A stretch of 47,840 nt of DNA from Opitutales bacterium (GCA_050331415.1 JBHJGW010000106.1:1-47840), one strand, 5' to 3'; positions 15,755 to 32,850 are shown, numbered from the stretch's first letter. Numbers and translations: made by a program. The notes: generated from the sequence alone by a model not told the origin.

Positions 15755-16426
15755 ATGCTCGAACTGCTGCAAGAGGCCGTTAAGCCCTACAACCTCCCTT
15801 GGACCATCCTGTTGGGGCTCGTCCTGCTCTACTGGCTGGTTCAGATCGTCACGGGCCTCGATTTCGAGGGTGATCTCAACTTCGAAGCCGAGGTTGACAT
15901 GGCCAATCCCGATGGCTTTCTCGACGGCCTGACGCGCTTCCTCCATGTGGGGCAAGTGCCGCTGATGTTCGTCATAGGGGCTTTGGCCCTCGTGGCGTGG
16001 ACCTTTTCGATCGTCGGAAATCTCTTTCTCAACCCCGACCAGGTAGTGTGGCTCGGTTGGCTGCTTGCGGTGCTGGCGCTTATTCCCGCCGTGCTGCTGG
16101 CGCGCTTGCTTCTGGCTCCCGTGGCCGCCTTTTACAAACAACTGGAAACCAAGGAAGCCGGCAACCGCTCGATGGTCGGGCAGACCTGCACGGTCATTAC
16201 CGAGCGCGTCGACGACGTCTACGGCCAGGGCGAGATTCACACCAAAGACGGCACCTTCACCGTCAGCATTCGCCCAGCTGAAAACTGCGAGCAGCTGGAA
16301 CGCGGTGACACGGCCCTGATTATTGACCGCTTTGACGACAAGCTCGTTTACGCGGTGCGGAAGGTTTCCTCGGACCAGCTCGCCATCGCCGACCATCGCT
16401 CGGCGCAGCCCGAATCTTCAGACTAG
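15755..16426 (+). CDS. yqiJ: NfeD/YqiJ-like membrane protein (membrane N-terminus, C-terminal OB-fold)
   Basis: Three TM helices, then a soluble beta-rich C-terminus (TCTVITERVDDVYGQGEIHTKDGTFTVSIRPAEN). Immediately upstream of an SPFH/flotillin gene, as in E. coli yqiJK. Confidence 0.7.
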   Translation: MLELLQEAVKPYNLPWTILLGLVLLYWLVQIVTGLDFEGDLNFEAEVDMANPDGFLDGLTRFLHVGQVPLMFVIGALALVAWTFSIVGNLFLNPDQVVWLGWLLAVLALIPAVLLARLLLAPVAAFYKQLETKEAGNRSMVGQTCTVITERVDDVYGQGEIHTKDGTFTVSIRPAENCEQLERGDTALIIDRFDDKLVYAVRKVSSDQLAIADHRSAQPESSD

Positions 16427-16511
16427 CGATCTGTGCCGGACCTGGGCCACTCTGCCCGCTCGACTTAGTTTTTCTTCTCAAACGTTTCTCAACGCTCAAT
16501 CGTCTCCGCAT

Positions 16512-18602
16512 ATGCACGCACTCGTTCTTGCACAAGCCGAAGCAGTGATCTTTGGCCTCTCATGGGTATGGCTCATCATTATCGGAACCGCTCTGTTTGC
16601 CTTGATCGGTTTTATCCTCAGCGTCTTTCACAAGGCGCAGCAGGGTTATGCCTTTGTGCGCACCGGCTTTGGCGGGACACGGGTTTTCCTGGCTGGCTGT
16701 ATCAGCATACCGGTCCTTCACCGGCTGGAAATCATGGACCTCCGGGTACAGACGCTGCAGCTCGACCGGCGTGGTAAGGACGGCCTCATCTGCAAAGACA
16801 ACGTACGGGCGGATATAACTGTCGGCTTTTATGTACGCGTCAACCCGACAGAGGAAAGCGTCCGCGAAGTCGCCCGCCGCGTGGGCTGCCAGCGTGCCTC
16901 GGACATCGACAAGTTGCGCGAACTCTTTGACGCGAAGTTCTCCGAGGCCCTCAAGACAGCGGGCAAGCAATTCGACTTCGAAGAGCTGTACACCAAGCGC
17001 CTCGAGTTCCGCGAAAAGATCAAGGAGGTCATCGAGAGCGATCTGGAGGCCTACGCCCTGACGGACGTCGCGATCGACTACCTCGAACAGACGGGCGTCG
17101 ATTCCCTCAACCCGAACAACATCCTGGACTCCGAGGGGATCAAGAAGATCACGGATCTGACGGCCAAGCAGATGATCCTCGAAAACGAGATCAACAACAA
17201 CCGCATCCGTACGATCAAGCAAAACGACGTGGAGCGCATCGAGGCAGTCCTCGAACTCGAAAAACAACAGGCCGAGGCGGAAGAAAAGCAGAAGCGCGAG
17301 ATCGCCGTCATCAGTGCACGCGAGGACGCCGAGTCCAAACGCGTGCAAGAAGAACAGCGCCAACGCGCCGAGCAGGCCCGCATCGCTGCCGAGGAGGAAA
17401 TTCAGATCGCCAACCAGAACATGGAGCGGCAGGTGATCGTCGCCGAGAAGAACAAGCAAAAGACCGAGGCGATTGAGACGGAACGGGTCGAGCGCGACCG
17501 CCAGCTCGAAATCGTGGAGCGCGACAAAGTCACCTCCCTCGCCGAAATCGAGAAGACCAAGGCCCTCGAAATCGAAAAGCGCAATATTCAGGACGTCATC
17601 AAGGAGCGCGTGATGGTCGAGAAGACCGTCGTGATTGAGCAGGAGAAGATCAAGGATACCGAGGCCTTCGCCACCGCCGACCGCCAGAAGCGCGTGACCC
17701 TGACCGCCGCCGAAGAAGAAGCCGAGGAAAAGAAGATCAAGCAGCTGAAGGCCGCCGAAGCCAGCAAAGAAGCCGAACAGATGAAGGCCGATGAGGACTT
17801 CTACCGGCAGACCCGCAAGGCCGAAGCCGGAAAGCGCGCCACCGAACTCGCCGCCGAAGAAATGGTTATCAGTGCCGAGGCGGAAGAAACCAGCTCGACC
17901 CGCACAGCCAACGCCAAGAAGACGCTCGCCGAAGCCACCGCCGCTGAAACCGCCGCCACCGGTTTGGGTGAGGCTCAAGTGATGGAAGCGAAAGCCGCCG
18001 CCAAACAGAAGGAAGGCGAGGCCGATGCCCATGTCATGGAACTGAAAGCCGCCGCCGACGCCAAGGGCATCCACCAGAAGGCCGAAGCGATGAAGCTCTT
18101 CAACGAAGCTGGCAAGGAACACGAAGAGTTCAAGCTGCGCCTCGAAAAGGAAAAGACCGTCGAGCTCGAAGCCATCCGCGTCAACGAGCAGATTGCCGAA
18201 TACCAGGCGAAGGTCCTCGGCGAGTCCCTCAAGAACACCAAGGTCGACATTGTGGGTGGCAGCGCGGACTTCTACAGCGAGATCGTTGGTGCCGTTACCC
18301 GCGGCAAGTCGTTCGAGCGCATGCTTGGGGCCAGCCCGGCCCTGGCCGACGTCAAGGAAACCTTCTTCAATGGCGATCCGGAGTACTTCAAGAGCCAGCT
18401 TTCGTCATGGCTGCGCGAATACGGGGTGAATGTCGACACGGTGAAAGACCTCTCCATCGCCGCCCTGCTGATGAAACTCGCCGGTCAGACTGACGACCCG
18501 GCGAAGCTGCAAAAGATTACAAGCCTGCAAGGCCTCGCCGAAAAATTTGGTCTCGCCATGCAACCGGTGGGCAAACTGCTGACGACTGCCGGAAAGAACT
18601 GA
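16512..18602 (+). CDS. yqiK: Flotillin-like SPFH/band-7 protein (YqiK family) with a very long E/K/A-rich coiled coil
   Basis: N-terminal TM helix (VWLIIIGTALFALIGFILSVF). SPFH domain (RTGFGGTRVFLAG...ICKDNVRADITVGFYVRVNP). About 450 aa of EA/KA-rich heptads. Start at ATG 16512. Confidence 0.9.
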   Translation: MHALVLAQAEAVIFGLSWVWLIIIGTALFALIGFILSVFHKAQQGYAFVRTGFGGTRVFLAGCISIPVLHRLEIMDLRVQTLQLDRRGKDGLICKDNVRADITVGFYVRVNPTEESVREVARRVGCQRASDIDKLRELFDAKFSEALKTAGKQFDFEELYTKRLEFREKIKEVIESDLEAYALTDVAIDYLEQTGVDSLNPNNILDSEGIKKITDLTAKQMILENEINNNRIRTIKQNDVERIEAVLELEKQQAEAEEKQKREIAVISAREDAESKRVQEEQRQRAEQARIAAEEEIQIANQNMERQVIVAEKNKQKTEAIETERVERDRQLEIVERDKVTSLAEIEKTKALEIEKRNIQDVIKERVMVEKTVVIEQEKIKDTEAFATADRQKRVTLTAAEEEAEEKKIKQLKAAEASKEAEQMKADEDFYRQTRKAEAGKRATELAAEEMVISAEAEETSSTRTANAKKTLAEATAAETAATGLGEAQVMEAKAAAKQKEGEADAHVMELKAAADAKGIHQKAEAMKLFNEAGKEHEEFKLRLEKEKTVELEAIRVNEQIAEYQAKVLGESLKNTKVDIVGGSADFYSEIVGAVTRGKSFERMLGASPALADVKETFFNGDPEYFKSQLSSWLREYGVNVDTVKDLSIAALLMKLAGQTDDPAKLQKITSLQGLAEKFGLAMQPVGKLLTTAGKN

Positions 18603-19078: not shown

Positions 19079-22000
19079 ATGACTCAGGGAAAATTAGAGG
19101 GGGGCGCCTATGAGGTCATTCGCAATCGCCTCAATCAGCAGGGGAAAGACTTGCTGGGGCGCCTGCAGGCACTCGATGCCAACCGCAAGGCAGTTTTTGG
19201 CGCGGTCGAGCCCCGGCTACTGACAACCGAGCGCATCCAGACTGCCAATAACTGTATTCCCCGCGGCATGACCGCCCTGCCCGGGGATCGCTTCATCTTC
19301 GGCTACAACGTCCACATTGGCCTCAAAAGCCAGGTCGAGGTCAGTGATGTTTTTTCCCTTTTCCAGTACCATCAGGACGAGCACCACTTCACGCAGGATG
19401 ATCTTTCATTTCTGACCTCCAGCCAGGAATTCGTCCAGGATTTCCAATATCTTTACAAATACTACAAAAAGACGACTTTCGCGAAGTTTATGCGGATGGG
19501 CCCGAACCTGTACATGGCCTTCCGCATCAGTGAGGACATTCGTGACATCAAAGTCTTCAAGTGGCTGCTCAAGGACGACGGGACATTCCAATACCTCGGC
19601 AACCGATTCGACCACGAGTACCAGTTTCCGGAGCAGCACGGCTTCAAGTGGACCCGTGCACACCGCGATATGCAACGCAGCGGTACCCACCCACACATCT
19701 CGATCGAAGACCGGCTTTTTGTGGAGACCGTTGGCGGCGACCTCACGATCAAGATTGAAGACAATACCGATTCTGGCGAAGGGATTTATAGCGAGCCGGT
19801 TAGCTATGCTGACCAGACCCTCGACGACGCCGATATCTACTACGCGGTCGTCGGCAGTCTAATTTTCCTGAAGATCAAGCCTTATCAGGAAAAGCAGACC
19901 CGCTATTTCATCTACAACGAAAAGGTGAAAGATGTGAAGCGCGTCGATTCCATCGAGCACAGCTGCGTCCTGCTTCCGGAAGAGCACGGCGTCATCTTCG
20001 CCGACGGCTTTTACCTGCACAACGGAGACTACAAGCGCTTCGACCCGCGCGAAGAGGCGATGCTCTATGAGCGCACCATCCGCGCGCCGAACGGCGAAGA
20101 CTATCTTTACGTCTTCTATCAGCGTGACCAGGGGGTGTATCAGCTGATGCCCTACAACCTGATCGCTCAGAAGGTCGAGAACCCCATCGAAGCAAATGGC
20201 TATGCACTCTTTGAAAATGGCTCCCTCGCGTACTTCAAAGCACACGACGAAGCCCAAAAGCACCACACCGTCCAAGTTTGGCAGACGCCATTCTCCGCAC
20301 GTGAGATACCAGTTGAAGGGCAGAAGGACAGCTACCTTTTTAAAGTCGGCAACTCGGACATCGTGCGCTGTATGGCCGAGTGCTATGAGATTTACAACCT
20401 GCTGCAACGTGAAGATGCCTACGAGGGCCTGTACCTCGACCTCACCCGCATCGCCACGCGGGTGATCGACAGCTACTTCTGGATCGAGAACGAGGCTGCC
20501 GCCAATCTCAAGGAAGTTCTGTCACAGATTTTGGGCACCGGCCAGGCGGCCATCGACGAGTTCGAAAAGGTCCAGCGCATCCGCAAGGCCACACTTGACC
20601 AGACTCGCCAAGTCCAAACTACCGCCCGCAAGCTCTTTACCGAACTCGACGGAACTCAGCCCGACGACGTTCGCGGCTACGTCGACCGCCTTGCGCGCTT
20701 GCGACGCCTCCGGGGGGAAGTCATTGGACTGAGGGAGCTGCGCTATGTCGACACGAGCCTTTGCGATGAGCTGGAAACGCAGATCGCCGAGCGCTCCGAC
20801 GGGGTCGCCCGGCATACGGTCGAGTTCCTCCTGCAGCCGGAGGCCCTGCAACCCTACCGAGACGCCATCGCTGCGCAGCGCGGCGAAATCGACAGCGCCA
20901 AGACCGCCCAGGAGGCAAAGCAAATTCTGGAGGAACTCGATCAGATCGGTGAGCAGCTCGAGATGCTCATCGAGACTATCTCGAACCTCAAAATCGAAGA
21001 TGCCACCCAGACCACGCGCATCATCGACAGCGTTTCCGAGCTTTTCACCGAACTCAATCAGCTCAAGGGCGCCGCCCGCAATAAGCGGCTCGACCTGATG
21101 CGGGCTGAGGGCGCGGCGCAGTTCCACGCCCAGTTGAAGCTGCTGGAGCAGTCGGTTGCCAACTATCTCGATATCGCCGACACTCCGGAGGCCGTCGACG
21201 AATACCTCACCAAAATGATGGTGCAGCTCGAAGAGCTCGAAGGCACTTACGCCGAGTTCGACGAGTTTATCGAAACCCTCTCGAACAAGCGGGCCGAACT
21301 GTACGACGCCTTCGAAACCAAGAAAGCCGCATTGATGGAAGCGCGGAACCGCCGCGCAACCAAGTTGGTTTCCTCCGCCGAGCGCATTTTAAAGGGCATC
21401 GAAAACCGCGCCCGTTCGATGACGGAGATTGCGGAGATCAACGGTTACTTCGCTGCCGACCTGATGGTCGATAAAACGCGCGACCTTGTCAGCCAGCTCA
21501 AGGAGATCGGAGAGGCGATCAAAGGCGATGATCTCCTGACGCGCCTCAAAACCATTCAGGGTGACGCCATCCGCCAGCTCAAAGATCGACAGGAGCTGTT
21601 CGTCGATGGCGAAAACGTCATTAAATTCGGCAAGCACCGCTTCACCGTCAACACGCAGCCATTGGAGCTGACGACTGTGTTGCGCGAGGGCGAGCTGTTC
21701 TATCACCTATCGGGAACGCAATTTTTCGAGCGCGTCGTCGACGACAGACTGGAGGCGACCCGCGAGGTCTGGGAAATGCAAAGCCCGGCCGAAAATGCGC
21801 AGGTGTATCGCGCCGAATTCCTCGCCTATCAAATGCTCAAGGCCCTCGAAGGCGGGCTCGAGCCGGGGCTGGCCGGTTTCGTGCAGCTCGATGGGGAAGC
21901 GCGCCTGGAGGCCGTCCGCCGTTTCATGGCTCCCCGCTATGCCGATGGGTATACCAAGGGCGTGCACGACGCCGATGCTGAGCGGCTGCTCACCGCGCTG

Positions 22001-25000
22001 GCCAAGATCCATCAGTCCGTCGGCCTCTTGCGCTATTCCCCCGACGCACGCGCCTGCGCCCTCGCCTTTTGGGTCAGCAGTTCCGGAGACAACGGCCTAG
22101 CTGCGCACCTGCGCGAACGCCTCGAAGCCTTTGGCGCGATGCTGCGGGCGTATCCAGAACACAAGACGCAGCGTGTCTACATCAACGAACTGCGCTCCGC
22201 TATCACACGTTTCAATGACGCGCACGGGCTCTTCCCCAACAACCTAGCGAACGAAGCCGCCGAATACCTTTTCTATGAGATCGTCGAGGACGAGCATTTT
22301 TACATCACCCGCGAGAGCGCCAAACTTGCCGACGACTTCAAACACGAGCTTCTCGAACGCCGCTTTCTGGAAAAATTTGATGCCGCTCGGGAGCGGGTGA
22401 AGGGTGACGCCGTCAGCGAATTTCGCATCATCCGCGATTGGCTCGAGGGCCACGCCGCCCACCACAAGCTTCCCCAGGAGCAGCACGAGTTTATTGCCGA
22501 AGCTGCGGCGCACATCCTTCGCGGCGGCGTCGAGCGGCGGCGGATCATCGATGTTCCGATCCAGGTCGACCTCGAAGACTTGCGCGGCGACCACGACAAC
22601 ATCGCCGAAGGCGGCAAGTACCACATGAACTACCTGCACTTTATGGACCGCCTTCGCGCCTTCGAGGCCGGTCCGTTTACGCTTTACCACCAGTTTCAAG
22701 AGCGTAAGCAGGAACTTGTTGAGCAGTTCGCCGAAGAGCTGCGCCTCGGAGAGTTCAAACCGCGCGTGCTCAGTGCATTTGTGCGCAACAAGCTTCTGGA
22801 CACCGTCTATCTGCCGCTGATTGGCGACAACCTCGCCAAGCAGATTGGTGCCGCCGGAGCAGATGCCCGCACCGACCGCATGGGCTTGCTGCTACTGATT
22901 TCGCCGCCAGGCTACGGAAAGACGACGCTAATGGAGTACGTGGCCAATCGCCTCGGCATAACCTTCATGAATGTCAACGGCCCCTCGCTCGGGCACGACG
23001 TCACCTCGCTGGACCCCGGCCAGTGCGCCAACATGGCAGCGCGGCAGGAAGTCGAGAAGATCAACCTCGCTTTCGAGATGGGCGATAACGTGCTCATCTA
23101 CCTCGACGATATCCAGCATACCAACCCGGAGCTGCTCCAGAAGTTTATTTCACTGTGTGACGGCACGCGTCGCATCGAGGGAGTCTACAAAGGCAAGTCC
23201 AAGACCTACGACCTGCGCGGGCGCAAGGTGGCTGTCGTCATGGCGGGTAACCCCTACACGGAAACCGGCGGCAAGTTCCAGATCCCGGATATGCTCGCCA
23301 ACCGCGCCGATACCTACAACCTCGGCGACATTATCGGCGAGAATTCAGACGCCTTCGAGGCCAGCTACATCGAAAACTCGCTCACCTCCAACAGCGTCCT
23401 GTCACGCCTATCGAGCCGTTCCCGCAAGGACGTTTATGCGATCATGCAGATCGCGCGAACGGGCCAGCGAGAGGGCGTCGAATTCGATTCGTCTTTCTCG
23501 ATGGAAGAAGTCAACGAAATGGTCAGCGTCATGAAAAAGCTGATGCGCGTTCGGGACACCATCCTTCGGGTCAACCTGATGTATGTGCGCAGCGCCGCCC
23601 AGGCCGACGACTATCGCACCGAGCCGCCCTTCAAGCTCCAGGGCTCCTACCGCAATATGAACCGGCTCGCCGAGAAGGTGCTGCCGATCATGACCGACCG
23701 GGAAATCGAACAGCTCATTGATGACCATTATGCTGGTGAGTCGCAGACCCTGACTGACGGCGCCGAAGCCAACTTGCTGAAGTTCAAGGAACTCGAAGGC
23801 AAACTGACGCCTGACGAGACCGAACGGTGGGAAGAAATCAAAAAGCGCTTCAAGCGGCAAAAGGCGCTCGGAGGCGCGGGTGATACCGACCCCGTCAACC
23901 GCGTTGTTGCGCAACTCGCCGACTTCAATAATGGCCTTGCCGAACTTGGCGATACCCTAAATGAGGGCACCAAAACTTACGGGGCCACCATGGCAGAAGC
24001 CCTTGCTGGCTTACGCGAGGCGCTTATGGAGGGCTCCCGGAGCCAGCAGCATACCTTGGCCGAAGCACTCGATTCCCTCAGCGGTTCCCTGATGGCCGGC
24101 TCGCAGCGGACGGGCGAAAGCCTCGCCGGGCTTGTCGAAAGCCTGCGCGAAACGATGGCGGCCGAAGCCGCGCGAGGGCGCGAAGGTCAGGCCGAACTGT
24201 CCGCCCGACTCGACGTCATCGCCGAGCGATGGCTGCAACATTCCACAGAAACCGCTTCCGCCCAAAACCTCGCCAGCGAGCGTAACCTTTCGGCTATTAC
24301 GCCGATCCTCTCGCAAATGGCAGAAGGGCTTGCGGCCACCAGCCAGGCACATCGCGAATCGTCGGTACAGACCGCCGAGGCGATTACGCCCCTGCTCAAC
24401 CGCTTGGTCGACAAGCTCGATGCCGCAAGCGATGCCCAGCGCGAAGCGGCGGCGCAAACGGTCGAAGCGCTGGTCCCTTTACTCGGGCGCGTTGCCGACA
24501 ACCTTTCGACGTCGAGCGAGGCACAGCGAGAGGGCGCGCAAGCAAGTGCGGAACGCGCAGGAAAGTTTCTTAGTACGATCGCCGATTCCATTCGCGAAGG
24601 CCAGCTCGCTGCAGCCGAGCAGACCAGCGGCGTCCTGGGAATGATGACACCGCTCCTCGGCAACATCTCAAACCAGCTCGCCCGCATTGCGGAAACCGGA
24701 GCCGCAGGGGGCCGGCAGTCAGAGACCATGGAGCAAATTCTGGCAACCCTTGCACGCGCCGAAACCGAGCAAACGAAAGCGGTTCAAGCTTGGGCGGAAG
24801 ACATGGCCCAGCGCGACAGCGCTCCAGAAGCCCGAACGGCTCCCCTTCCCATGCCGGCGCAGGAAGCCACAGCAGCCCACGCAAGTGGTGGCGCATTGAA
24901 GCTCGACACTCGCACTGAAGCTCTACTGCAGAGCATCCTGATCGCCTTCCACCACCTGTTTCGCAAAACGGGGATCGAGCGACCGCAAGTTTTTACCAGC

Positions 25001-25015
25001 GACGAAACGGAATAG
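19079..25015 (+). CDS. Giant multidomain protein (1978 aa): N-terminal beta-rich domain, extended coiled coils, central AAA+ ATPase (AAA_5/MoxR/dynein-like), C-terminal ~29-aa tandem repeats and an acidic tail
   Basis: Single uninterrupted ORF of 5937 nt. Walker A LLLISPPGYGKTTL (22901-22927). Walker B VLIYLDDIQH (23090-23119). Sensor-1 VVMAGNPY. Antisense ORFs inside are low-complexity. Confidence 0.85.
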   Translation: MTQGKLEGGAYEVIRNRLNQQGKDLLGRLQALDANRKAVFGAVEPRLLTTERIQTANNCIPRGMTALPGDRFIFGYNVHIGLKSQVEVSDVFSLFQYHQDEHHFTQDDLSFLTSSQEFVQDFQYLYKYYKKTTFAKFMRMGPNLYMAFRISEDIRDIKVFKWLLKDDGTFQYLGNRFDHEYQFPEQHGFKWTRAHRDMQRSGTHPHISIEDRLFVETVGGDLTIKIEDNTDSGEGIYSEPVSYADQTLDDADIYYAVVGSLIFLKIKPYQEKQTRYFIYNEKVKDVKRVDSIEHSCVLLPEEHGVIFADGFYLHNGDYKRFDPREEAMLYERTIRAPNGEDYLYVFYQRDQGVYQLMPYNLIAQKVENPIEANGYALFENGSLAYFKAHDEAQKHHTVQVWQTPFSAREIPVEGQKDSYLFKVGNSDIVRCMAECYEIYNLLQREDAYEGLYLDLTRIATRVIDSYFWIENEAAANLKEVLSQILGTGQAAIDEFEKVQRIRKATLDQTRQVQTTARKLFTELDGTQPDDVRGYVDRLARLRRLRGEVIGLRELRYVDTSLCDELETQIAERSDGVARHTVEFLLQPEALQPYRDAIAAQRGEIDSAKTAQEAKQILEELDQIGEQLEMLIETISNLKIEDATQTTRIIDSVSELFTELNQLKGAARNKRLDLMRAEGAAQFHAQLKLLEQSVANYLDIADTPEAVDEYLTKMMVQLEELEGTYAEFDEFIETLSNKRAELYDAFETKKAALMEARNRRATKLVSSAERILKGIENRARSMTEIAEINGYFAADLMVDKTRDLVSQLKEIGEAIKGDDLLTRLKTIQGDAIRQLKDRQELFVDGENVIKFGKHRFTVNTQPLELTTVLREGELFYHLSGTQFFERVVDDRLEATREVWEMQSPAENAQVYRAEFLAYQMLKALEGGLEPGLAGFVQLDGEARLEAVRRFMAPRYADGYTKGVHDADAERLLTALAKIHQSVGLLRYSPDARACALAFWVSSSGDNGLAAHLRERLEAFGAMLRAYPEHKTQRVYINELRSAITRFNDAHGLFPNNLANEAAEYLFYEIVEDEHFYITRESAKLADDFKHELLERRFLEKFDAARERVKGDAVSEFRIIRDWLEGHAAHHKLPQEQHEFIAEAAAHILRGGVERRRIIDVPIQVDLEDLRGDHDNIAEGGKYHMNYLHFMDRLRAFEAGPFTLYHQFQERKQELVEQFAEELRLGEFKPRVLSAFVRNKLLDTVYLPLIGDNLAKQIGAAGADARTDRMGLLLLISPPGYGKTTLMEYVANRLGITFMNVNGPSLGHDVTSLDPGQCANMAARQEVEKINLAFEMGDNVLIYLDDIQHTNPELLQKFISLCDGTRRIEGVYKGKSKTYDLRGRKVAVVMAGNPYTETGGKFQIPDMLANRADTYNLGDIIGENSDAFEASYIENSLTSNSVLSRLSSRSRKDVYAIMQIARTGQREGVEFDSSFSMEEVNEMVSVMKKLMRVRDTILRVNLMYVRSAAQADDYRTEPPFKLQGSYRNMNRLAEKVLPIMTDREIEQLIDDHYAGESQTLTDGAEANLLKFKELEGKLTPDETERWEEIKKRFKRQKALGGAGDTDPVNRVVAQLADFNNGLAELGDTLNEGTKTYGATMAEALAGLREALMEGSRSQQHTLAEALDSLSGSLMAGSQRTGESLAGLVESLRETMAAEAARGREGQAELSARLDVIAERWLQHSTETASAQNLASERNLSAITPILSQMAEGLAATSQAHRESSVQTAEAITPLLNRLVDKLDAASDAQREAAAQTVEALVPLLGRVADNLSTSSEAQREGAQASAERAGKFLSTIADSIREGQLAAAEQTSGVLGMMTPLLGNISNQLARIAETGAAGGRQSETMEQILATLARAETEQTKAVQAWAEDMAQRDSAPEARTAPLPMPAQEATAAHASGGALKLDTRTEALLQSILIAFHHLFRKTGIERPQVFTSDETE

Positions 25016-25103: not shown

Positions 25104-25664
25104 CTATTCGCTTTTGCGGTAAATGCCGGACGCATTGACGACCAGGTTCTCCGGAGTCGAAATCGTGTCAACAGTTCCGGTTACTACGACGTGGTCGAGT
25201 TCCTGAAGGCCGCCAACTCCGCGCAGCGACCCTTGCAGTGGCAACCCTTCGGCGTCGACGAGCTGCACGCTGGCACGGCCCTTAGTGACCTTCTCCGGAT
25301 CCTCGCAACAGGCGTCCCAAGGCGTTGCGCAATGGTCATCGTCGCCCATCTCGTTGCAGAACATAATGCTTTCATCCGCCAGGACCAGGGTGGCGAAGTT
25401 TTCACCGAAGGGATTCATCGTTGCGCCGATTTGCCCTGACACGACGATGAGCTCGCCGGGTTCGGCGCTGGCGCGCGCAGCTTCCACATTGACTGCGCCC
25501 TCGGGCTCGCTTTCCAGCAGGTACATGCTGACCGGGCTTTCCGAAGTCTCGGGGGAGACGTCGCTGGCGGTCCCTTTCGAAGCTGCATTATCGCCGCAAC
25601 CCGCAAGAAATACGGCCAGCGCCGAGACAGCAGCCGTGGTGGTTTGATGGATACATTTATTCAT
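25104..25664 (-). CDS. Cys-rich lipoprotein (186 aa), last gene of the ABC exporter operon
   Basis: Lipobox LAGC after a signal peptide. Cys/His cluster CNEMGDDDHCATPWDACCEDPE. Confidence 0.65.
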   Translation of the reverse strand: MNKCIHQTTTAAVSALAVFLAGCGDNAASKGTASDVSPETSESPVSMYLLESEPEGAVNVEAARASAEPGELIVVSGQIGATMNPFGENFATLVLADESIMFCNEMGDDDHCATPWDACCEDPEKVTKGRASVQLVDAEGLPLQGSLRGVGGLQELDHVVVTGTVDTISTPENLVVNASGIYRKSE

Positions 25665-25704
25665 AACAGGCTATTGTTTTGAGACATTTTGGGGAGGTAA
25701 AAGT

Positions 25705-26856
25705 TCAGGCAGAGCGCAGCGCAACCGGCAGTGGCGCCCGCAAGCATCGCAGAGCGGGAGGAATGGCACCGATGACGCCGAGCCCAAAACCGGTTACCAG
25801 GCCTAGGGTGATCGTATCCGGCGTCAGCAACAGGCGAAAAGTTCCCATGGAGAAATTGACGGTCGTGCCTTCGAGCAAGAACACCGCGAGTGAGGCGGCA
25901 GCCAGCGTGCCCGCCAGCGTTGCCAGCAGACTCTCCTGCAGCAGAGAAAGAAAAATCGCGCCGCGCGAGAAACCCACGGCCTGCAGCGTAGCGATTTCGC
26001 GGATACGGGAAGCAAACGCCGCGTAAAGCAGATTCATGCCGCCGAAGGCCGCGCCAATTCCGACAAGGATCGCGGTCAGCCATGTCATTCCGCGAATCGG
26101 GCCGTAGAAATGCGCCAGCTTTGCGTAGTAATCGGACTCCCGCAGCGCAACGAGCTCGAGGTCGAGCCGCTGACTGGCAAACAGCTCGGCATGCGCAAAT
26201 CCCGATTCGTCTCCCATTCGAAGGACAACTGCGGACAAATTTTCGCGCTGCGTCAGGGTCATCAGGTCGCTGCGCGTGAACCAGACTTCAGACTCCATGA
26301 CAGTGCCAGGGGCGTCGAACACACCCGCGACGGTTAGCGTCTGACCTTCGAAGGCAAGCTCGCTGCCCGGAGTCAAAGCGGAGGCTGGTCTGCCCAGCGA
26401 GCGGTGCGCAAGCCGTCCGACAAGCACCTCGCCCGGGCCGGGATACCCGCCCTCGATAATGCGCACCTCGCGGTGCACTTCGAACGCCGCGGGCGTTACG
26501 CCCCGCAACAGTGCTTGAGAATCGCTGTCGTCGGGAAAGGTCAACGCGCCCATGTATTGAATTTCTCCTGACACCGCGGGCACCCCGGCCCGGCGCTCGA
26601 TACCCCGAATCCCCGCAGTGGCCAGGGTCTCGGTCTGCACAGGGATCTCGCTGCGCTCGACACTCTCCTCGGAGCCTGCCCCTAGGAGGATGACGTTTCG
26701 CGGTGAGCCGGTGGCCTGCAACACGCGCTCCATGCCGTCATTGAACGCCGAAGCAGCAAAGACGAGAAAGACCACCAGAGCGGCACCACCGATCTTTTGG
26801 ATCAGCTGCCCCGGCGCTCGAACCAGGTTGCGAGTTGCGTAGGAAAACGGCAGCAT
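25705..26856 (-). CDS. ABC transporter permease, FtsX/MacB-like
   Basis: FtsX-type topology with a large periplasmic loop. C-terminal helices LATLQAVGFSRGAIFLSLLQE. Confidence 0.8.
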   Translation of the reverse strand: MLPFSYATRNLVRAPGQLIQKIGGAALVVFLVFAASAFNDGMERVLQATGSPRNVILLGAGSEESVERSEIPVQTETLATAGIRGIERRAGVPAVSGEIQYMGALTFPDDSDSQALLRGVTPAAFEVHREVRIIEGGYPGPGEVLVGRLAHRSLGRPASALTPGSELAFEGQTLTVAGVFDAPGTVMESEVWFTRSDLMTLTQRENLSAVVLRMGDESGFAHAELFASQRLDLELVALRESDYYAKLAHFYGPIRGMTWLTAILVGIGAAFGGMNLLYAAFASRIREIATLQAVGFSRGAIFLSLLQESLLATLAGTLAAASLAVFLLEGTTVNFSMGTFRLLLTPDTITLGLVTGFGLGVIGAIPPALRCLRAPLPVALRSA

Positions 26857-26860
26857 GACA

Positions 26861-28015
26861 CTAAGCCCCGCGCAGGGAGCTAACAATGGGTTTGCGGGCG
26901 GCGATCAGGGCGGGCCAGATGGAGGCGACGACCCCCAGTGCAAGCGCCACCAGCAAGCCGTAGGCGACAACCGTCCAGCTTGGCGAGAGCGCTAGCGTCA
27001 GGCCTTCGTTGCCCAAGGTGAAGCGCTTGAGGTGGAAGAAAAGCCCGGCGGAAAGACAGCCGATCAGGCCGCCGGCGAGACCGAGCAGCGCGCCTTCCAA
27101 AATCATCAACCAGCCGATGGACCAGCGGGAAAAACCGATTGTCTGGTAAACCGCGCTTTCTTTGATCCGCGAGCGCGCCGCCAGCAGGAGCGCGTTGGCG
27201 ACCAGCCCCAGCACCGCAAGTACCGCCCCGAGCCCGAGCCAACGGGTGAAGCCGACCAGCTCGATCATTTCACTCGCAGTCTGGGCGAAGAAGGCCTTCT
27301 CGGGGCGGGTGTTTGTCGGAGCCTGATCTGCGGCGAAAAGGTCATCTATGCGCTCGGCCACGGGTTCGAGATCGTCAGGGCTCTCCACTCGAACATTGAA
27401 CTGCGTGACGACCCCGAGACCGACGCGGGAGGCCTGCTGCAGAAACGGAAGGTGCACGTATGCGACATTGTTGTCCTGGGGATTTGGCGACGTAATGATC
27501 CCCGCAACCCACACCCTGACGCCGACAGCCTCAAATTGATCGCCCGGCTCCAAACCCCGCCGCTGCGCAAAATGCTTACCGACGAGCGCCGCATCGCTGC
27601 GGGATTGCCATGACTCGTAAGAGCCTGTCACTACTTCAAGCTCGGGGTTGTACGAGCGAAGGGCGCCAGTTGGGACGCCCCGGAAGGTGATGACGTCAAG
27701 GCTCGCCCCGCAGTTGTTCACCGTGATCTGAATCGGCAGTGCCTCGACGACGCCGTCGATCCGCTCGATCTCACCGAGGTAGTGCTCCGGCAGCCGTGAG
27801 GTCATCGGGCAAAATCGGTTTTCGCGGTAAACGACCAGGGTGTTGTCCTGCGCGCTTGTCTCGGTGACCGTTTTCAGGGACCGCTGCATCGTTTCCACCG
27901 AGGCATAAAGGAACATGCCGACGGCAACGCCGATCACGGTCAGGAGGCTGCGGACGCGGTGCCGCGTCAACTGCTTGAGGGCCAAGCCACCGAGGTGTGC
28001 AAATGGTCGCATCAT
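26861..28015 (-). CDS. ABC transporter permease, FtsX/MacB-like (second copy)
   Basis: Paralogue of the adjacent permease (AVYQTIGFSRWSIGWLMILE). 4-bp overlap with the ATPase gene. Confidence 0.8.
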   Translation of the reverse strand: MMRPFAHLGGLALKQLTRHRVRSLLTVIGVAVGMFLYASVETMQRSLKTVTETSAQDNTLVVYRENRFCPMTSRLPEHYLGEIERIDGVVEALPIQITVNNCGASLDVITFRGVPTGALRSYNPELEVVTGSYESWQSRSDAALVGKHFAQRRGLEPGDQFEAVGVRVWVAGIITSPNPQDNNVAYVHLPFLQQASRVGLGVVTQFNVRVESPDDLEPVAERIDDLFAADQAPTNTRPEKAFFAQTASEMIELVGFTRWLGLGAVLAVLGLVANALLLAARSRIKESAVYQTIGFSRWSIGWLMILEGALLGLAGGLIGCLSAGLFFHLKRFTLGNEGLTLALSPSWTVVAYGLLVALALGVVASIWPALIAARKPIVSSLRGA

Positions 28016-28722
28016 GCCACGACCTCCTCTTTGGTGCCGCTCTCGACCAGTTGTCCCTTTTCGAGGTGCAGGGTCCGGGCAGCGGCCGACGCGGCAAGTG
28101 CGTCGTGAGTCACCATGACGATCGTTTTGCCGTAATCCGTAGCCAAGGCCTTGAGGAGGTTCAAAATCGCCGTACCGGACTCCCGGTCGAGGTCGCCGGT
28201 CGGCTCGTCAGCAACCAGCAACCCAGGGTTGGCAACGATCGCCCGCGCAATCGCCACACGCTGCTCCTGGCCACCAGAAAGCTCGGTCGGCCGGTGCTCG
28301 GAGCGGTCCGCGAGACCGACAAGCTCGAGGGCCTCCGTCACGCGCCGACGGCGTTCGCGACGGGTTAGAGATTTGTCCAGCAGGAGCGGCAGCTCCACAT
28401 TCTCGAAGGCCGTCAGAATCGGCACAAGGTGGTACAGCTGGAAGATGTAGCCGCAGTGCCGGGAACGCCAGCGAGTCAGTTCCGCCCGCGACAGCCTGGC
28501 GAGGTCGTGCCCGTCCACGTGTAGCTCACCGGCGGTAGGTTGGTCGATGCCCGCGATCAAGTTGAGCAGCGTGGTCTTGCCCGAACCCGAGGGGCCCATC
28601 AGCGCAAGGAATTCGCCGCGGGGGACATCGAGATCGAGCTGTTCGAGGGGCGTAACGGTCGTGCGCCCTTTTTGATAGGATTTGGTCAGTCCGCGGCAGC
28701 GGATAAAGCTTTCGGTTTCCAT
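28012..28722 (-). CDS. ABC transporter ATP-binding protein (MacB/LolD-type)
   Basis: Walker [13 protein letters not shown]. Signature [14 protein letters not shown]. Walker [14 protein letters not shown]-loop VMVTHD. Confidence 0.9.
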
Positions 28723-28740
28723 TCCGGTTGCAGCAGAAGT

Positions 28741-30198
28741 TCAGGTCTCCGGCATCGAGCGAGCTTCGACACGCTCGCCGCTTTCCAGGCCGGCAGGTGG
28801 GTTTACGACGACTCGCTCGCCGGGCTTCAGCCCTTCGGCAACCCGCGTATAGCCTTCCCGAGACTCGGGGGCCAAGGTGATCGCCTTTCGGCGAACGCGC
28901 TCGCCGTCCTGGCCGATTACCCAAACCTCGGCGGACGTACCGGAGCGGCCCAGGAGCGCACTTTCAGGGACGTACAGGCGCACCCGGGTCATCGCCGCGG
29001 GACGCTCCGCTGCGCGGTCGCCGCCACCCGCGGCCAGGAATTCCGCTCGGCAGAGCATCTCCGGGCGCAGACGGTCGTCGGGGTCGAGCAGCTCGACCTT
29101 GGCCTGCAGGGTGTTGCGCTGCAGGTCGGCCTCGCCGGTGATACGGGTTACGCGACCCTGCAGCTCGACGTCGGGAAGAAAATTGGTTCGCAGCCTTACG
29201 GCCTGCCCGAGCCGCAACTGCGCAGCCTCGGCCAGCGGCACATCGATCCGGGCTTGCAGGCTCTCCGGGTCATAAAGATAGGCAATGGCTGCGGAATCGT
29301 GATTGTCCGGACCTAACATGCGCTGCTGGCCAGGTAAGGCGAAAAGCCGCATTACGCGACCCTCAATCGGCGAGGTGATCCGGTGCCGCCGGAGAGCAAG
29401 CTCCCGACGTGCCACCTCGGTTTCCGCGAGGGCGACCCCCGCCTCCGCTTCAGCATAGCGGCTCTGGAGCTGCTGAATCTGGGCCTCCGTCTCCGCCACC
29501 TCCGACTGCAACGCAGCAACCTCGGCCTCCTGGGTGACAGCGGCCTGACGGCTCTGGTCGATATCAATCTGTGGAACGGCCTCGCGCCCTGCCCCTGCGA
29601 GGCGGTCGGCGGCGTCGCGCCGGTAATCGCGCATTGCCGATGCCCCTCGAATCCGTTCGGCAAGGGTCGTCAGTTTAGCGCGCGCAGCGGCAACGGCCGC
29701 CTCGTTGGCATTGACCGTCGCCCTCGCTGCCTGAAGTGATGCGCGGGCTGTCTGGAGATCCAGCCGGGCGTCGTCGTCGATCAGGGTCGCCAGAACCACG
29801 CCTTTTTCAACGGTTTCGCCTTCGAGGACAAAAACCTCGTCGACGACACCGGAAACCAGTGTCGAGACCTTGGTCGGCAGGGGGTCGGGTTCGATCCACC
29901 CGGTTGCCTGAAATAAAACCGGGGCCTGGAAAGGGTCGGAAGCGCCGACCGAGGCGCCTTCCCGCAGATCGATAGGCTCGGCGCCCGGGTCCTCGGGCAA
30001 GGTGACTACATTGGCTATCTGGACCGGCCGCGCAGGGAGCAGGCGCTCGCCAAACAGCAGCGCCATGAGCAAGGTAAAGCCAAGGATCAGGCCTACCGGG
30101 ATACTGAGGGAAAGTAATCGTCCGCGGTTGCGTTGCGGCGGAGGACTACCGGAAGGGCCAGGGTTGCCCAGAAGGGAATTCAACTGTTCTGAAGCCAT
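28741..30198 (-). CDS. HlyD-family membrane fusion protein (periplasmic adaptor)
   Basis: N-terminal TM anchor, long coiled-coil hairpin (AALQSEVAETEAQIQQLQSRYAEAEAGVALAE), beta-barrel C-terminus. First gene of the exporter operon. Confidence 0.8.
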   Translation of the reverse strand: MASEQLNSLLGNPGPSGSPPPQRNRGRLLSLSIPVGLILGFTLLMALLFGERLLPARPVQIANVVTLPEDPGAEPIDLREGASVGASDPFQAPVLFQATGWIEPDPLPTKVSTLVSGVVDEVFVLEGETVEKGVVLATLIDDDARLDLQTARASLQAARATVNANEAAVAAARAKLTTLAERIRGASAMRDYRRDAADRLAGAGREAVPQIDIDQSRQAAVTQEAEVAALQSEVAETEAQIQQLQSRYAEAEAGVALAETEVARRELALRRHRITSPIEGRVMRLFALPGQQRMLGPDNHDSAAIAYLYDPESLQARIDVPLAEAAQLRLGQAVRLRTNFLPDVELQGRVTRITGEADLQRNTLQAKVELLDPDDRLRPEMLCRAEFLAAGGGDRAAERPAAMTRVRLYVPESALLGRSGTSAEVWVIGQDGERVRRKAITLAPESREGYTRVAEGLKPGERVVVNPPAGLESGERVEARSMPET

Positions 30199-30320
30199 GC
30201 ACAATTCAAGCTAGATGGTCGGGAATCCATGTAACGGTCGCACTGCGACAGTACACGGGAACGGCCGCGAAACGCCGCGACCTCATGAGGCCTCACACGC
30301 GAGGCCGTCAAACCACCAGC

Positions 30321-30716
30321 TCAGTTGAGCCGCTTCTGAAGCAACGCGAGGCGTTGCGTGACCGGCAAGACCGGGGGGTCGTGCCCACGGGGAACCCGCT
30401 GCCGCATTTGGTCGGCCAGCGAGAAGGTCTCCGGACGAGAAGCTGCGACCGCGGAAACCGGAAGCGCAATCGCGTCAACGCCCGTCCGCGACATAACGCC
30501 CAAAACCTCTGGAGACTTTTCCGCCTGTTCGCAAAGGCACGTCGGCGCCGAATTACTACCTTCTTCCGATTGGCAGCAGTTATCCCGCGCGCTCACTTGG
30601 GTCGTGCAGCAGTCATCCATCGACCCCCGAGCCAACTGAGCCGCTGCGCAAACGCGAAACGGGCCACTGAGTGACAAAAGGAAGATGATGACCAGTGAGC
30701 GGAGCATCGACATCAA
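30321..30716 (-). CDS. Small Cys-rich exported protein (131 aa) upstream of the exporter operon
   Basis: Signal peptide MLRSLVIIFLLSLSGPFRVCAAA. Cys cluster DDCCTTQVSARDNCCQSEEGSNSAPTCLCEQ. Shares the motif D-x-C-C-[EQ]-[DS]-x-E with the lipoprotein at 25104-25664. Overlapped by two plus-strand ORFs, so coding status is moderate. Confidence 0.4.
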   Translation of the reverse strand: MMSMLRSLVIIFLLSLSGPFRVCAAAQLARGSMDDCCTTQVSARDNCCQSEEGSNSAPTCLCEQAEKSPEVLGVMSRTGVDAIALPVSAVAASRPETFSLADQMRQRVPRGHDPPVLPVTQRLALLQKRLN

Positions 30717-30781
30717 GTAGAACGGGAACGAGCCCCGGCGTCAACCCTGCGGGACACCGAGGCCGAAACCAACCTTACTGT

Positions 30782-32355: not shown

Positions 32356-32850
32356 CTAATCGTCGTCGCGGCGCATGGGGCTGCGACGGTCCCGACCGGT
32401 CTGACCACGCTTCGGGCCCTGTTGTCGGGGACGGGAAATGTCACCTTCGCCGAAATCACGAGGCGGGGGGCGATCACCAAAATCCCGGCGCGGCGGGCCA
32501 CCGGGGCCGTCGCGGCGCGGCGGGCGGTCACCAAAGTCGCGACGAGGCGGCCGGTCGCCGAAATCACGGCGTGGCGGGCGATCGCCAAAGCTTTTGCGGG
32601 GTTTGAATTCGCGCTCTCTGGCCGCATTGACCTTGAGCGGGCGACCGCCGAAATCGGCGCCGTTCAGGTTTTCAATCGCGTTTTCCGCTTCGCCGTCGTC
32701 GGGCATGGTTACAAAACCAAAGCCCTTGCTGCGACCGGTCTCGCGGTCCATGATGATGGTGGCTTTCGTGACGCTTCCAAATTCAGCGAAAACATCCGCC
32801 AATTCATTGTCTTCCGTCTCGTAAGGCAGATTGCCAACGTAGATGTCCAT
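32356..32850 (-). CDS. RRM-type RNA-binding protein with C-terminal DFGDRPPRR tandem repeats
   Basis: RNP2 IYVGNL and RNP1 KGFGFVTM. Four to five repeats of FGDRPPRRD, encoded by roughly 27-bp DNA repeats. Confidence 0.9.
   Translation of the reverse strand: MDIYVGNLPYETEDNELADVFAEFGSVTKATIIMDRETGRSKGFGFVTMPDDGEAENAIENLNGADFGGRPLKVNAAREREFKPRKSFGDRPPRRDFGDRPPRRDFGDRPPRRDGPGGPPRRDFGDRPPPRDFGEGDISRPRQQGPKRGQTGRDRRSPMRRDDD
32437..32604. repeat. Tandem ~27-bp coding repeats (DFGDRPPRR units) inside the RRM gene
   Basis: Repeated gtcacc/gtcgcc-aaa(g/a)tc-(a/g)cg-(a/g)cg-(a/g)ggcgg units. Multiple spurious overlapping ORFs arise here. Confidence 0.8.

Follow-up and report, generated by a model that had tools for sequence, protein, structure and literature searches.

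The window analysed here, a 47,840-nucleotide stretch of DNA from an Opitutales bacterium (GCA_050331415.1, JBHJGW010000106.1:1-47840), carries on its minus strand six genes that form a self-contained operon kept across the Verrucomicrobiota. They run from a small Cys-rich ORF through an adaptor, an ABC ATPase and two FtsX/MacB permeases to a Cys-rich lipoprotein, and a preliminary description of this DNA had placed all six ORFs and their order correctly. The genes and associated features are:

30716 to 30744, minus strand: sigma-70-like promoter, read from the sequence (-35 TTGACG at 30744-30739, 17-nt spacer, -10 TCTACT at 30721-30716)
30321 to 30713, minus strand: small exported Cys-rich protein (synteny, alignment, dN/dS, leave-one-out HMM)
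30205 to 30323, minus strand: structured spacer RNA, an outer helix enclosing three hairpins (RNA folding, shuffles, family comparison)
28741 to 30204, minus strand: periplasmic adaptor (HlyD/MacA-type membrane-fusion protein) bearing a membrane anchor at its N terminus and a long coiled-coil hairpin (TIGR01730, PF16576, PF13437)
28012 to 28722, minus strand: ABC ATPase of the LolD/DevA/MacB-NBD group (PF00005, 2.5e-37)
26861 to 28015, minus strand: type VII (MacB/FtsX) permease 1 (PF12704, 7.2e-14; PF02687, 6.3e-12)
25705 to 26856, minus strand: type VII (MacB/FtsX) permease 2, the heterodimer partner (PF02687, 4.7e-11; PF12704, 5.3e-08)
25104 to 25664, minus strand: OB-fold lipoprotein with an invariant Cys4-Trp loop (C103, C112, P115-W-D-A-C119-C120)

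The four middle genes encode a type VII (MacB-family) ABC machine made up of a MacA-like adaptor, a single ATPase and two distinct FtsX/MacB permeases, and Pfam and NCBIfam matches bear out the earlier suggestion of a MacB/Dev-like exporter with an HlyD-type adaptor. Both permeases exceed the gathering scores for PF02687 and PF12704, as type VII permeases should, and the two different permease genes imply a heterodimer. The reading frame of permease 2 is open to 26886, although a start at ATG 26856 is more likely, this being the gene call (383 aa) in Logan contig L003. The ATPase belongs with the cognate ATPases of type VII systems, its best NCBIfam matches being LolD (the top match), DevA, FtsE and the MacB NBD. 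The adaptor, encoded with its transporter as in tripartite pumps, scores 146 bits against TIGR01730 (cut-off 94.9) and matches PF16576 (3e-17) and PF13437 (2.5e-11); its residues 143-285 give weak coiled-coil matches, below cut-off, in the place expected of a duct-docking hairpin. Periplasmic Cys69 and Cys102 of permease 1 are present in 100% of 68 sequences and are kept in the distant L088 clade.

Scanning a collection of one genome per species for the motif CxTPWDACC returned 207 relatives. Wherever there was sufficient DNA the pump genes lie directly 5' of the lipoprotein gene; the sole exception is the orphan lipoprotein copy of locus L021. The adaptor gene is kept in all loci with sufficient upstream DNA, the small-ORF module is single copy in all loci but one, and the operon is also present in a relative carrying a tandem-OB variant. 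Identity is 58-82% for the permeases and 67-80% for the ATPase in nearly all loci, with an ATPase at 62% in one Tepidisphaeraceae contig (L079).

The preliminary description had doubted the small ORF, allowing that the real gene might be one of the overlapping plus-strand ORFs. Those plus-strand ORFs are without support, and the small ORF proves to be a genuine gene: 56 of 63 related loci have a syntenic small ORF ahead of the adaptor gene, dN/dS values of 0.17-0.32 indicate purifying selection, and a leave-one-out HMM of the family picks out the small ORF as its only match among 666 window ORFs (E=4.5e-12). Among the carriers is the culturable Coraliomargarita akajimensis, with its small ORF at L001:3005-3364. 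The reading frame originally given (30716-30321) stands, but its TTG start at 30716 does not, as that codon overlaps the -10 hexamer; ATG 30713 or ATG 30707 is the more likely start, giving a protein of 130 or 128 aa, respectively. The ORF was not found on either strand in the protein collection searched, and therefore appears to be unannotated.

The small protein is predicted to be Sec-exported, with a mature form of about 100 residues that is largely disordered and acidic and ends in a PPP-plus-amphipathic-helix tail. Its signal peptide, MSMLR-SLVIIFLLSLSG-PFRVCAA, was judged from the sequence to be of the N-terminal, Sec-directing kind, and in the family this peptide is retained across orders, together with the Cys pattern and the tail, including in the distant L088 clade. 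In the window's protein the disordered acidic segment takes the form DDCC...DNCC...CLC. The corresponding family segment holds about 8 Cys (median 7 in 40 residues), with two CC pairs and 18% acidic residues; the number of Cys (5-11) and their spacing differ among members, and there are no CxxC knuckles in the family. His and Met make up 1.9% and 0.9% of the protein. The tail reads DPPVLPVTQRLALLQKRLN in the window; among 54 family members, 48 have PP within the final 28 residues and 50 end in I, L or V. Otherwise the mature protein evolves quickly, at approximately 20% identity compared with 60-80% for the permeases. AF2 predicts an N-terminal helix (3-15) and, with confidence, a C-terminal helix (118-129), and assigns residues 19-91 mostly low confidence (pLDDT<50). 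No Pfam family matched the 41 family members above cut-off. We set aside membership in a metallothionein-like sponge class, since the one match to PF07846 (1 of 41 members, E=0.049) falls below cut-off and there is no fixed Cys-x-Cys or Cys-x-x-Cys array.

At the other end of the operon, the lipoprotein has a canonical lipobox (...VFLAGC, conforming to L-[AS]-[GA]-C) whose Cys is invariant in 31 homologues. Its fold class is OB, its family comprises 1371 representatives, and the loop C-x8-C-x-P-W-D-A-C-C is invariant in the family; the conserved residues are the four Cys, Trp and Asp, with no Met/His site. It was rightly noted at the outset that the pump is flanked by two Cys-rich exported proteins whose families are not recognised, and both go with the pump as dedicated extracytoplasmic partners, each uncharacterised. 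They are not related to each other, however, and the claim that they are paralogues fails: a BLASTP alignment of 19 residues has E=0.17, and hhalign assigns a probability of 3.6% over 25 columns. The proposed shared motif D-x-C-C-[EQ]-[DS]-x-E breaks down in the small family, where just the CC is conserved (39-40 of 41) and D occupies position -2 in at most three of 41 sequences, whereas W-D-A-C-C is invariant in the lipoprotein family. With family-level overlap limited to "CC", we rejected the idea of a paralogous pair.

The -10 hexamer of the promoter ends 2 nt ahead of ATG 30713, and the transcript would therefore have almost no leader. In 26 of 56 related loci a TTGACA-like -35 is likewise found with a -10 whose last base lies 4-14 nt, in most cases 4-10, upstream of the start codon. 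A stricter tool scan did not report this promoter, which was read by eye. Inspection of the upstream regions by eye revealed no conserved operator, and the promoter looks constitutive.

Between the small ORF and the adaptor gene, the region of the small-ORF stop codon (UGA-GCUGGUGG) pairs with a segment approximately 12-26 nt upstream of the adaptor ATG. This outer helix has 12 pairs in the window, against 3.8 in shuffles. Across the family the spacers fold more stably than controls (mean z=-2.13 vs approximately 0, p=2e-17), and the helix has at least 6 pairs in 36 of 46 loci, although it is individually significant in only seven of the 46. Compensatory pairs occur in two clades, and the spacer RNA has no Rfam match. 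Because the small-ORF stop codon pairs with the adaptor start region, the helix suggests translational coupling of the small ORF to the adaptor.

MacB-type machines are known as a class, and the six-gene combination with two Cys-rich partners is a variant. Like MacAB-TolC, AatPABC/dispersin, CexPABC/CexE, PvdRT-OpmQ and DevBCA, the permeases have an FtsX C-terminal and a MacB core domain; like MacB-type pumps generally, the system has a LolD-like ATPase (separate or fused in such pumps) and a MacA/HlyD-type adaptor, and by analogy is expected to use mechanotransmission to act on substrates in the periplasm. The classical MacB permease is joined to its ATPase and works as a homodimer, whereas two permease genes are present here, as in a LolC/LolE-like heterodimer. 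Similarity to solved MacB-type members is only distant, the nearest chains for permease 1 being 5xu1, MacB and LolF at E of about 1e-6 or weaker. Unlike MacAB-type pumps, this one has two obligatory accessory genes, from families lacking a Pfam model, and no duct gene in its operon.

Among more specific comparisons, the operon resembles LolCDE in its heterodimeric FtsX-type permease pair and in an ATPase whose best NCBIfam match is LolD, but LolCDE has no adaptor. Assignment to LolCDE was rejected on this ground and on the scores for LolD (230.1 bits vs a cut-off of 307.75) and LolCE (43.6 vs 362.45), and assignment to the DevBCA glycolipid exporter on those for DevA (214 vs 295.8) and DevC (24.6 vs 290.35). 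CusF is a small soluble periplasmic OB-fold protein with Met/His ligands and a Trp beside the site, serving the RND-type Cus pump. Our lipoprotein likewise has an OB fold, shares its operon with genes for an efflux pump and adaptor, and has a Trp adjoining its candidate ligands. The differences are that its candidates are four Cys residues, that it is a lipoprotein rather than soluble, and that its pump is of the ABC type. CusF is absent among the fold matches listed for the lipoprotein, and with an hhalign probability of 0.2% and no Met/His site we do not class it as a CusF-type metallochaperone.

In PA4063-PA4066 of Pseudomonas aeruginosa, a split MacB ATPase and permease lie between two periplasmic proteins; the system is Zur-regulated, PA4063 is thought to assist PA4064-65, and involvement in cobalt-pyochelin export has been described (PMC11481552, PMC8561739). 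There too the first gene encodes a small exported protein, metal-binding in that case. The Pseudomonas operon has four genes (ATPase, one permease, two periplasmic proteins) and no adaptor, however, whereas ours has an adaptor and two permeases, and its Zur box and His-rich ferredoxin-like first protein contrast with the disordered Cys-rich first protein and the OB lipoprotein in last place here. The last Pseudomonas gene we take to be of the DUF3299 family; no Pfam family, DUF3299 included, matches our lipoprotein at E<=0.1. We rejected a PA4063-PA4066-type operon on the lack of Pfam matches for the accessory proteins, the low His content, the presence of an adaptor and the lack of an operator by eye.

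Three functions had been proposed for the small proteins, namely thiol-rich metal-binding chaperones, a redox relay, and a substrate or immunity pair for an exported peptide; of these, an exported substrate fits the anatomy best. We tentatively prefer a reading in which the small protein is a periplasmic client of the pump. Transcription would begin at the near-consensus promoter, with almost no leader, and the small protein would be the first product translated; a ribosome terminating at its stop codon would melt the long-range helix that otherwise covers the adaptor translation start, and pump synthesis would thus be tied to small-protein synthesis. The protein would exit via Sec, shed its signal peptide and probably gain disulfides, and as the pump's periplasmic client it might offer its C-terminal helix as a recognition handle. 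Having docked to a duct encoded elsewhere, the pump would expel the small protein, or position it across the outer membrane, by ATP-driven mechanotransmission, while the OB lipoprotein would be a dedicated periplasmic partner in a vaguer role, holding or receiving the client. Counting for this reading are the conserved pump architecture, the leading place and coding character of the small ORF, its disordered middle with a confident C-terminal helix, its single copy and the spacer helix. There are also precedents: MacB pumps pick up Sec-delivered, disulfide-bonded or approximately 10-kDa periplasmic proteins (PMC5985334). MacAB-TolC exports enterotoxin STII, which is Sec-exported and disulfide-bonded, and export of dispersin and CexE has been reported or proposed for the Aat and Cex pumps. 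Dedicated periplasmic partners accompany type VII ABC systems (PMC12646458).

Several points count against a client. At about 100 residues, the mature protein, though predicted to be disordered, reaches the size limit cited for cargo of MacB. The coupling and gene order suit an accessory subunit just as well, and the Cys4-Trp loop and vicinal Cys pairs equally suit binding of a ligand or metal. Neither the operon nor the DNA next to it in the window has a gene for an outer-membrane duct (TolC/OEP). In E. coli tolC lies apart from its pump genes, and the duct here could likewise be elsewhere. In favour of the client, though in just three of about 50 loci, one of the two ORFs closest downstream encodes a PF02321 outer-membrane efflux protein.

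It is possible, if rather less than probable, that the operon instead handles a soft or thiophilic metal, the small protein and OB lipoprotein binding the ion in the periplasm and handing it to the pump for expulsion, much as CusF does for CusCBA. The vicinal Cys pairs and Cys-rich acidic segment would suit this, as would the invariant Cys4-Trp loop on a fold of CusF's class, the conserved permease Cys, an adaptor Cys conserved at 98%, and, as a precedent, the Pseudomonas operon, in which two periplasmic proteins, one of them metal-binding, flank the MacB-type genes. Against it, approximately 200 flanking ORFs show no enrichment for metal-responsive regulators, P-type ATPases or the like, and the promoter looks constitutive, with no conserved operator by eye. 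His and Met are scarce in the small protein, Cys number and spacing vary without CxxC knuckles, and the CusF, Pfam and metallothionein comparisons above gave no relationship. A continuous thiol path is lacking, since Thr replaces adaptor Cys385 in the L088 clade and the window has Ala in place of permease-2 Cys219; moreover, Cys in an oxidising periplasm would likely be disulfide-bonded.

DevBCA, MacAB and YbbAP are exporters of lipids or other hydrophobic compounds, and we consider it somewhat unlikely, but worth weighing, that this pump exports an unrelated envelope molecule (a lipid, glycolipid or hydrophobic compound) with both Cys-rich proteins as structural or regulatory subunits, the small protein docking by its C-terminal helix and the lipoprotein tethering or gating the complex. 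The module's wide distribution, constant operon position and well-conserved permeases and ATPase are consistent with this, as are the constitutive-looking promoter, a coupling suited to stoichiometric assembly, the family-21 glycosyltransferase genes among the two nearest downstream ORFs in seven loci, and the periplasmic partners that are common in type VII systems (PMC12646458). On the other hand, the operon has no consistent linkage to biosynthetic genes, no small-molecule substrate is indicated, and a fast-evolving disordered middle would be unusual in a fixed subunit.

It is very improbable that the locus makes a bacteriocin or toxin together with its exporter and a lipoprotein conferring immunity. 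The order of peptide, ABC exporter and lipoprotein recalls lantibiotic and lactococcin-972 loci, and the ATPase reaches 182 bits with the model of lactococcin-972-type exporters and 206 with DarD, each below its cut-off. An immunity pair fits poorly, however, because the module is single copy and holds the same operon position across a phylum-wide genome set rather than being patchy; the flanking genes are housekeeping. Given this distribution, and because neither a maturase nor a leader-cleavage protease is encoded in the operon or next to it, we rejected a RiPP/bacteriocin locus. Least probable of all is a cis-acting upstream or chance ORF whose product has no function, for although the small ORF is missing from the protein collection and the spacer structure could make it purely regulatory, its dN/dS, its leave-one-out HMM match and the conservation of signal peptide, Cys positions and C-terminal motif as far as the L088 clade all argue otherwise.

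Returning to the small protein as a client of the pump, a bolder and more doubtful version is that the operon is a pathway for placing a disordered, disulfide-forming Cys/Pro-rich protein on or beyond the outer membrane, with the lipoprotein as receptor or assembly factor and pump synthesis gated by the RNA helix; the operon is widespread in the Verrucomicrobiota and apparently extends to other PVC lineages. In a variant, the Cys-rich protein would be a sacrificial thiol sponge, loaded in the periplasm and then ejected. If the pathway is real, the small protein would be a new envelope component, and its pump would be gated by a new stop-to-start RNA helix. Comparable in spirit are the Cys-rich YTV wall proteins reported in cell-wall preparations of Planctomycetes (PMC8567305).

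The six minus-strand ORFs set out in the preliminary description were all found at their positions, from the small ORF for a Cys-rich exported protein (30321-30713) through the genes of an adaptor, an ATPase and two permeases to that of a Cys-rich lipoprotein (25104-25664), and the exporter identity proposed for the four middle genes was borne out by Pfam and NCBIfam. The adaptor matches TIGR01730 at 146 bits against a cut-off of 94.9, together with HlyD_D23 and HlyD_3, and each permease has MacB_PCD and FtsX domains; the top matches of the ABC ATPase are LolD, DevA, FtsE and the MacB nucleotide-binding domain, all sub-threshold. The genes are tightly packed, with a 4-nt overlap between the ATPase and permease 1 and remaining intergenic gaps of 4 to 40 nt; the spacer between the small ORF and the adaptor gene measures 117 nt, or 122 nt with the adaptor start at ATG 30198. 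What defines a type VII ABC system is the periplasmic partner it drives: EnvC, LolA, TolC with MacA, or TesA. Two points are secure: the operon core encodes an adaptor and a type VII (MacB-family) ABC pump, and the pump has two obligatory partner proteins of undescribed families. By analogy with MacAB-TolC, the pump should act on a periplasmic substrate (PMC5985334).

Cys69 and Cys102 of permease 1 are invariant, even in the distant clade of locus L088, and probably form a structural disulfide. Cys219 of permease 2 is 96% conserved, yet is Ala in the window, and adaptor Cys385, 98% conserved among Verrucomicrobia, is Thr in L088; on account of these two substitutions, the idea of a continuous thiol-lined path through the pump was dropped.

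The lipoprotein has a canonical lipobox, FLAGC, whose Cys is invariant in the family, as are C103, C112, P115-W116-D117-A118-C119-C120 and Q134. No Pfam domain is present in any of 114 close homologues, and a full HMM search gave 1371 representatives at 50% identity. The AF2 model is confident (pLDDT 85.8) and has an OB fold whose long inserted loop bears the four Cys; a profile search of the PDB, made from the lipoprotein alignment, gave nothing above noise, and neither accessory family had a credible match in Pfam or NCBIfam. There are also tandem-OB variants of about 300-340 residues (homologues P0123, P0124 and P0153), one OB copy having PWDYCC and the other a degenerate motif. The six-gene arrangement is kept around P0123 in L088 (3758-9990) and is noted for L089 and L090 as well; P0153 is the one member with a C-terminal fusion to DUF6370, a domain not mentioned in the literature searched.

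A scan for the lipoprotein signature CxTPWDACC, with each species represented by one genome, gave 207 relatives, nearly all from Verrucomicrobiota (Opitutales, Puniceicoccaceae, Verrucomicrobiales and Akkermansiaceae), along with one Tepidisphaeraceae contig. Co-occurrence of lipoprotein homologues with MacB-type pump genes, which the preliminary description had suggested checking, was seen in all fetched loci with enough upstream DNA except L021, and the order adaptor-ATPase-permease-permease-lipoprotein was kept throughout them. The lipoprotein homologue of L021 (5987-6484) lies on a 10.5-kb contig that has no adaptor, ATPase or permease genes, including in the 6 kb upstream, and looks like an orphan copy.

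Homology search of the protein collection with the small ORF gave zero matches, itself included, and exact look-ups did not find it there with any of three possible starts, the plus-strand ORFs that overlap it being absent as well; the small ORF is therefore apparently unannotated in this MAG. Searching with a profile of 41 syntenic ORFs brought up just 8 database proteins, as the search index relies on shared words, and for this reason the evidence on the small family was drawn from synteny in the fetched loci. Under a simple rule (ORF length 94 to 161 residues, ORF end 68 to 251 nt upstream of the adaptor gene), a same-strand ORF precedes the adaptor gene in 56 of 63 loci; four of the other seven were recovered via HMM or by eye, and three had insufficient upstream sequence. 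Eleven moderately close pairs of small ORFs gave dN/dS values of 0.17 to 0.32. Among 666 stop-to-stop ORFs of the window, the sole match to an HMM made without the window sequence was ORF 30321-30740 (minus strand; E=4.5e-12), with an alignment that runs end to end. Synteny, dN/dS and the HMM agree that the small ORF is real and conserved, which settles the doubt raised about it at the outset.

Two cases deserve separate mention here. Contigs L001 and L002 both carry the identical lipoprotein of Coraliomargarita akajimensis, but between their small ORFs (L001:3005-3364, L002:3006-3359) there is a frameshift that replaces the conserved C-terminal tail in L002 and inflates the dN/dS of the pair to 1.15; either natural variation or faulty assembly may account for it. 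L077 is the only locus with two small-protein ORFs, the second (14293-14742, minus strand; HMM E=4.2e-7) lying about 11 kb from the operon copy.

From the small-family alignment and statistics over 54 loci, the small protein has a four-part plan: a signal peptide, a Cys-rich segment, a poorly conserved linker and a conserved tail. The Cys-rich segment of about 40 residues has a median of 7 Cys, usually with two CC pairs, the second often with a hydrophobic residue after it, and is 18% acidic and 3% basic. In the tail, 48 of 54 sequences have PP among the last 28 residues, 52 have Arg among the last 16, and 50 end in I, L or V. The window protein matches this plan, with DDCC...DNCC...CLC and then DPPVLPVTQRLALLQKRLN, and so does the 156-residue small ORF of L088, with the C-terminal end GPPRSSDIGGRAVLRRQCALII. 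His (1.9%) and Met (0.9%) are scarce. The AF2 model of the small protein has low confidence overall (pLDDT 57.6) and was used for the terminal helices only, these being an N-terminal helix and a confident C-terminal helix at 118-129; residues 19-91 are mostly below pLDDT 50.

The two Cys-rich proteins had been taken for paralogs sharing a motif, D-x-C-C-[EQ]-[DS]-x-E. Paralogy found no support, with a BLASTP E value of 0.17 over 19 residues and a profile-profile probability of 3.6%. Only the CC of the motif holds in the small family (39-40 of 41 sequences), the D at -2 and the [EQ]-[DS]-x-E being peculiarities of the window sequence; the lipoprotein family has an invariant W-D-A-C-C. The resemblance between the two proteins is one of style, "C...C...CC followed by acidic residues", and may come from similar chemistry and not from shared ancestry.

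Three elements of the window bear on expression of the operon:

31017-31005: terminator-like hairpin after the upstream homocysteine methyltransferase gene
30744-30739 and 30721-30716, minus strand: promoter read from the sequence, -35 TTGACG, 17 nt, -10 TCTACT
30205-30323, minus strand: structured spacer RNA, with equivalents in the spacers of the related loci L001-L085

Given the promoter and the upstream hairpin, a separate transcription unit appears to begin with the small ORF. A TTGACA-like -35 is present in 26 of 56 loci, and the -10 that goes with it ends just 4-14 nt, mostly 4-10, from the start codon, so near to it as to imply leaderless or nearly leaderless small-ORF mRNAs. The TTG at 30716 is ruled out as a start in the window, as the -10 spans 30721-30716, which points to ATG 30713, or to ATG 30707 if the mRNA is leaderless.

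The spacers fold with a mean z of -2.13, and 57% of loci are below -2, against a mean z of about 0 in four control windows (Mann-Whitney p=2e-17). In the recurrent layout, an outer helix encloses two or three hairpins; its 5' strand (often UGAUUCG) begins in or beside the small-ORF stop codon, and the 3' one (often CGAAUCA) stops 1-15 nt short of the adaptor start codon. The outer helix has at least 6 pairs in 36 of 46 loci and a mean of 9.3 pairs versus 4.2 in shuffles, while being individually significant in just 7 of the 46. RNAalifold found compensatory changes at 5 of 19 pairs in the Coraliomargarita group and at 8 of 24 in the Verrucomicrobiales alignment, and the window spacer has the same layout with 12 outer pairs. 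Rfam gave no relevant match in the operon and has no family for the spacer RNA. The spacer RNA is a candidate translational-coupling element: a ribosome terminating on the small ORF would open the outer helix and expose the adaptor initiation region. Attenuation at Cys codons was rejected, as the CC pairs are 70-90 codons upstream of the hairpins. A covariance model from nine Coraliomargarita-group spacers proved too clade-specific (11 matches, all but two of them training sequences) and was replaced by the fold statistics over all loci. The operon and spacer RNA of L016, a record labelled Polaribacter sp., group with the Coraliomargarita clade (83 bits, model R1), and the label is probably that of a mis-binned contig; several further records, labelled Akkermansia or Chthoniobacteraceae, are listed beside it.

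As to function, we tentatively favor the small protein as a client, or cargo, of the pump. This reading is preferred because the small ORF is the first and a separately tuned gene of the operon, because synthesis of the pump appears tied to its translation, because only the export signal, the cysteines and the C-terminal handle are conserved, as is usual in secreted or surface proteins, and because MacB-type pumps export Sec-delivered proteins that are disulfide-bonded or of roughly 10 kDa. STII and dispersin are such cargo, and CexE has been proposed (PMC5985334). That both Cys-rich proteins are instead metal chaperones feeding the pump is a rather doubtful alternative; it has good precedent in the PA4063-PA4066 operon (PMC11481552), but neither protein is related to CusF or metallothioneins, and these loci offer it no regulatory or contextual support. 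The operon flanks are variable and mainly housekeeping, and across about 200 flanking ORFs we found no enrichment of metal sensors, metal ATPases, redox enzymes, biosynthetic partners or peptide maturases. Both proteins might also be subunits of a pump for some envelope compound, a reading we consider still more doubtful. A bacteriocin-immunity locus is unlikely in these mainly housekeeping surroundings, as is a non-functional uORF in place of a gene with this conservation.

The transporter core is an already known kind of system. New are its obligatory pairing with the two families, the combination of a heterodimeric permease with an adaptor, and the stop-to-start RNA helix, none of which we found described in Pfam, NCBIfam, Rfam or the literature searched. 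To the known type VII systems the operon adds a widespread module with two partner families described in no database, and both families, with the signatures CxTPWDACC and CC...CC...PPP-helix, can serve as markers for finding and annotating the small gene. If the small protein is cargo, it joins the few protein substrates known for MacB-type pumps and indicates a surface component of Verrucomicrobia not yet described; if both proteins bind metal, the system would be an ABC-driven counterpart of Cus. The RNA helix is a separate, testable case of long-range translational coupling. Since culturable organisms carry the operon (Coraliomargarita akajimensis and Cerasicoccus arenae, for example), what the pump moves is directly testable.

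Some neighbors recur among the loci. A same-strand ORF of about 700 residues lies directly upstream of the small ORF, mainly in Verrucomicrobiales loci (L028, L034, L036, L044, L064, L066, L072, L073 and others), and could be a clade-specific regulator of the operon. In 10 loci, a Ser/Thr kinase is encoded by one of the two ORFs nearest upstream; downstream there is a family-21 glycosyltransferase in 7 loci and an outer-membrane efflux protein in 3. In the window itself, the 3' end of the operon faces a convergent plus-strand gene at 19079-25015, whose 1978-residue product has an AAA domain, DUF7902 and DUF3686 ("ATPase involved in DNA repair"). The 759-residue ORF at 16323-18602 (plus strand), with no Pfam match at E<=1e-4, has a membrane anchor and a long Glu/Lys/Ala-rich coiled-coil-like stretch, and the A-richness of its coding strand is the probable cause of a spike in AT skew (0.48) at 17-18 kb. 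At 32356-32850, on the minus strand, is a gene for an RRM-domain RNA-binding protein with C-terminal repeated FGDRPPRRD units.
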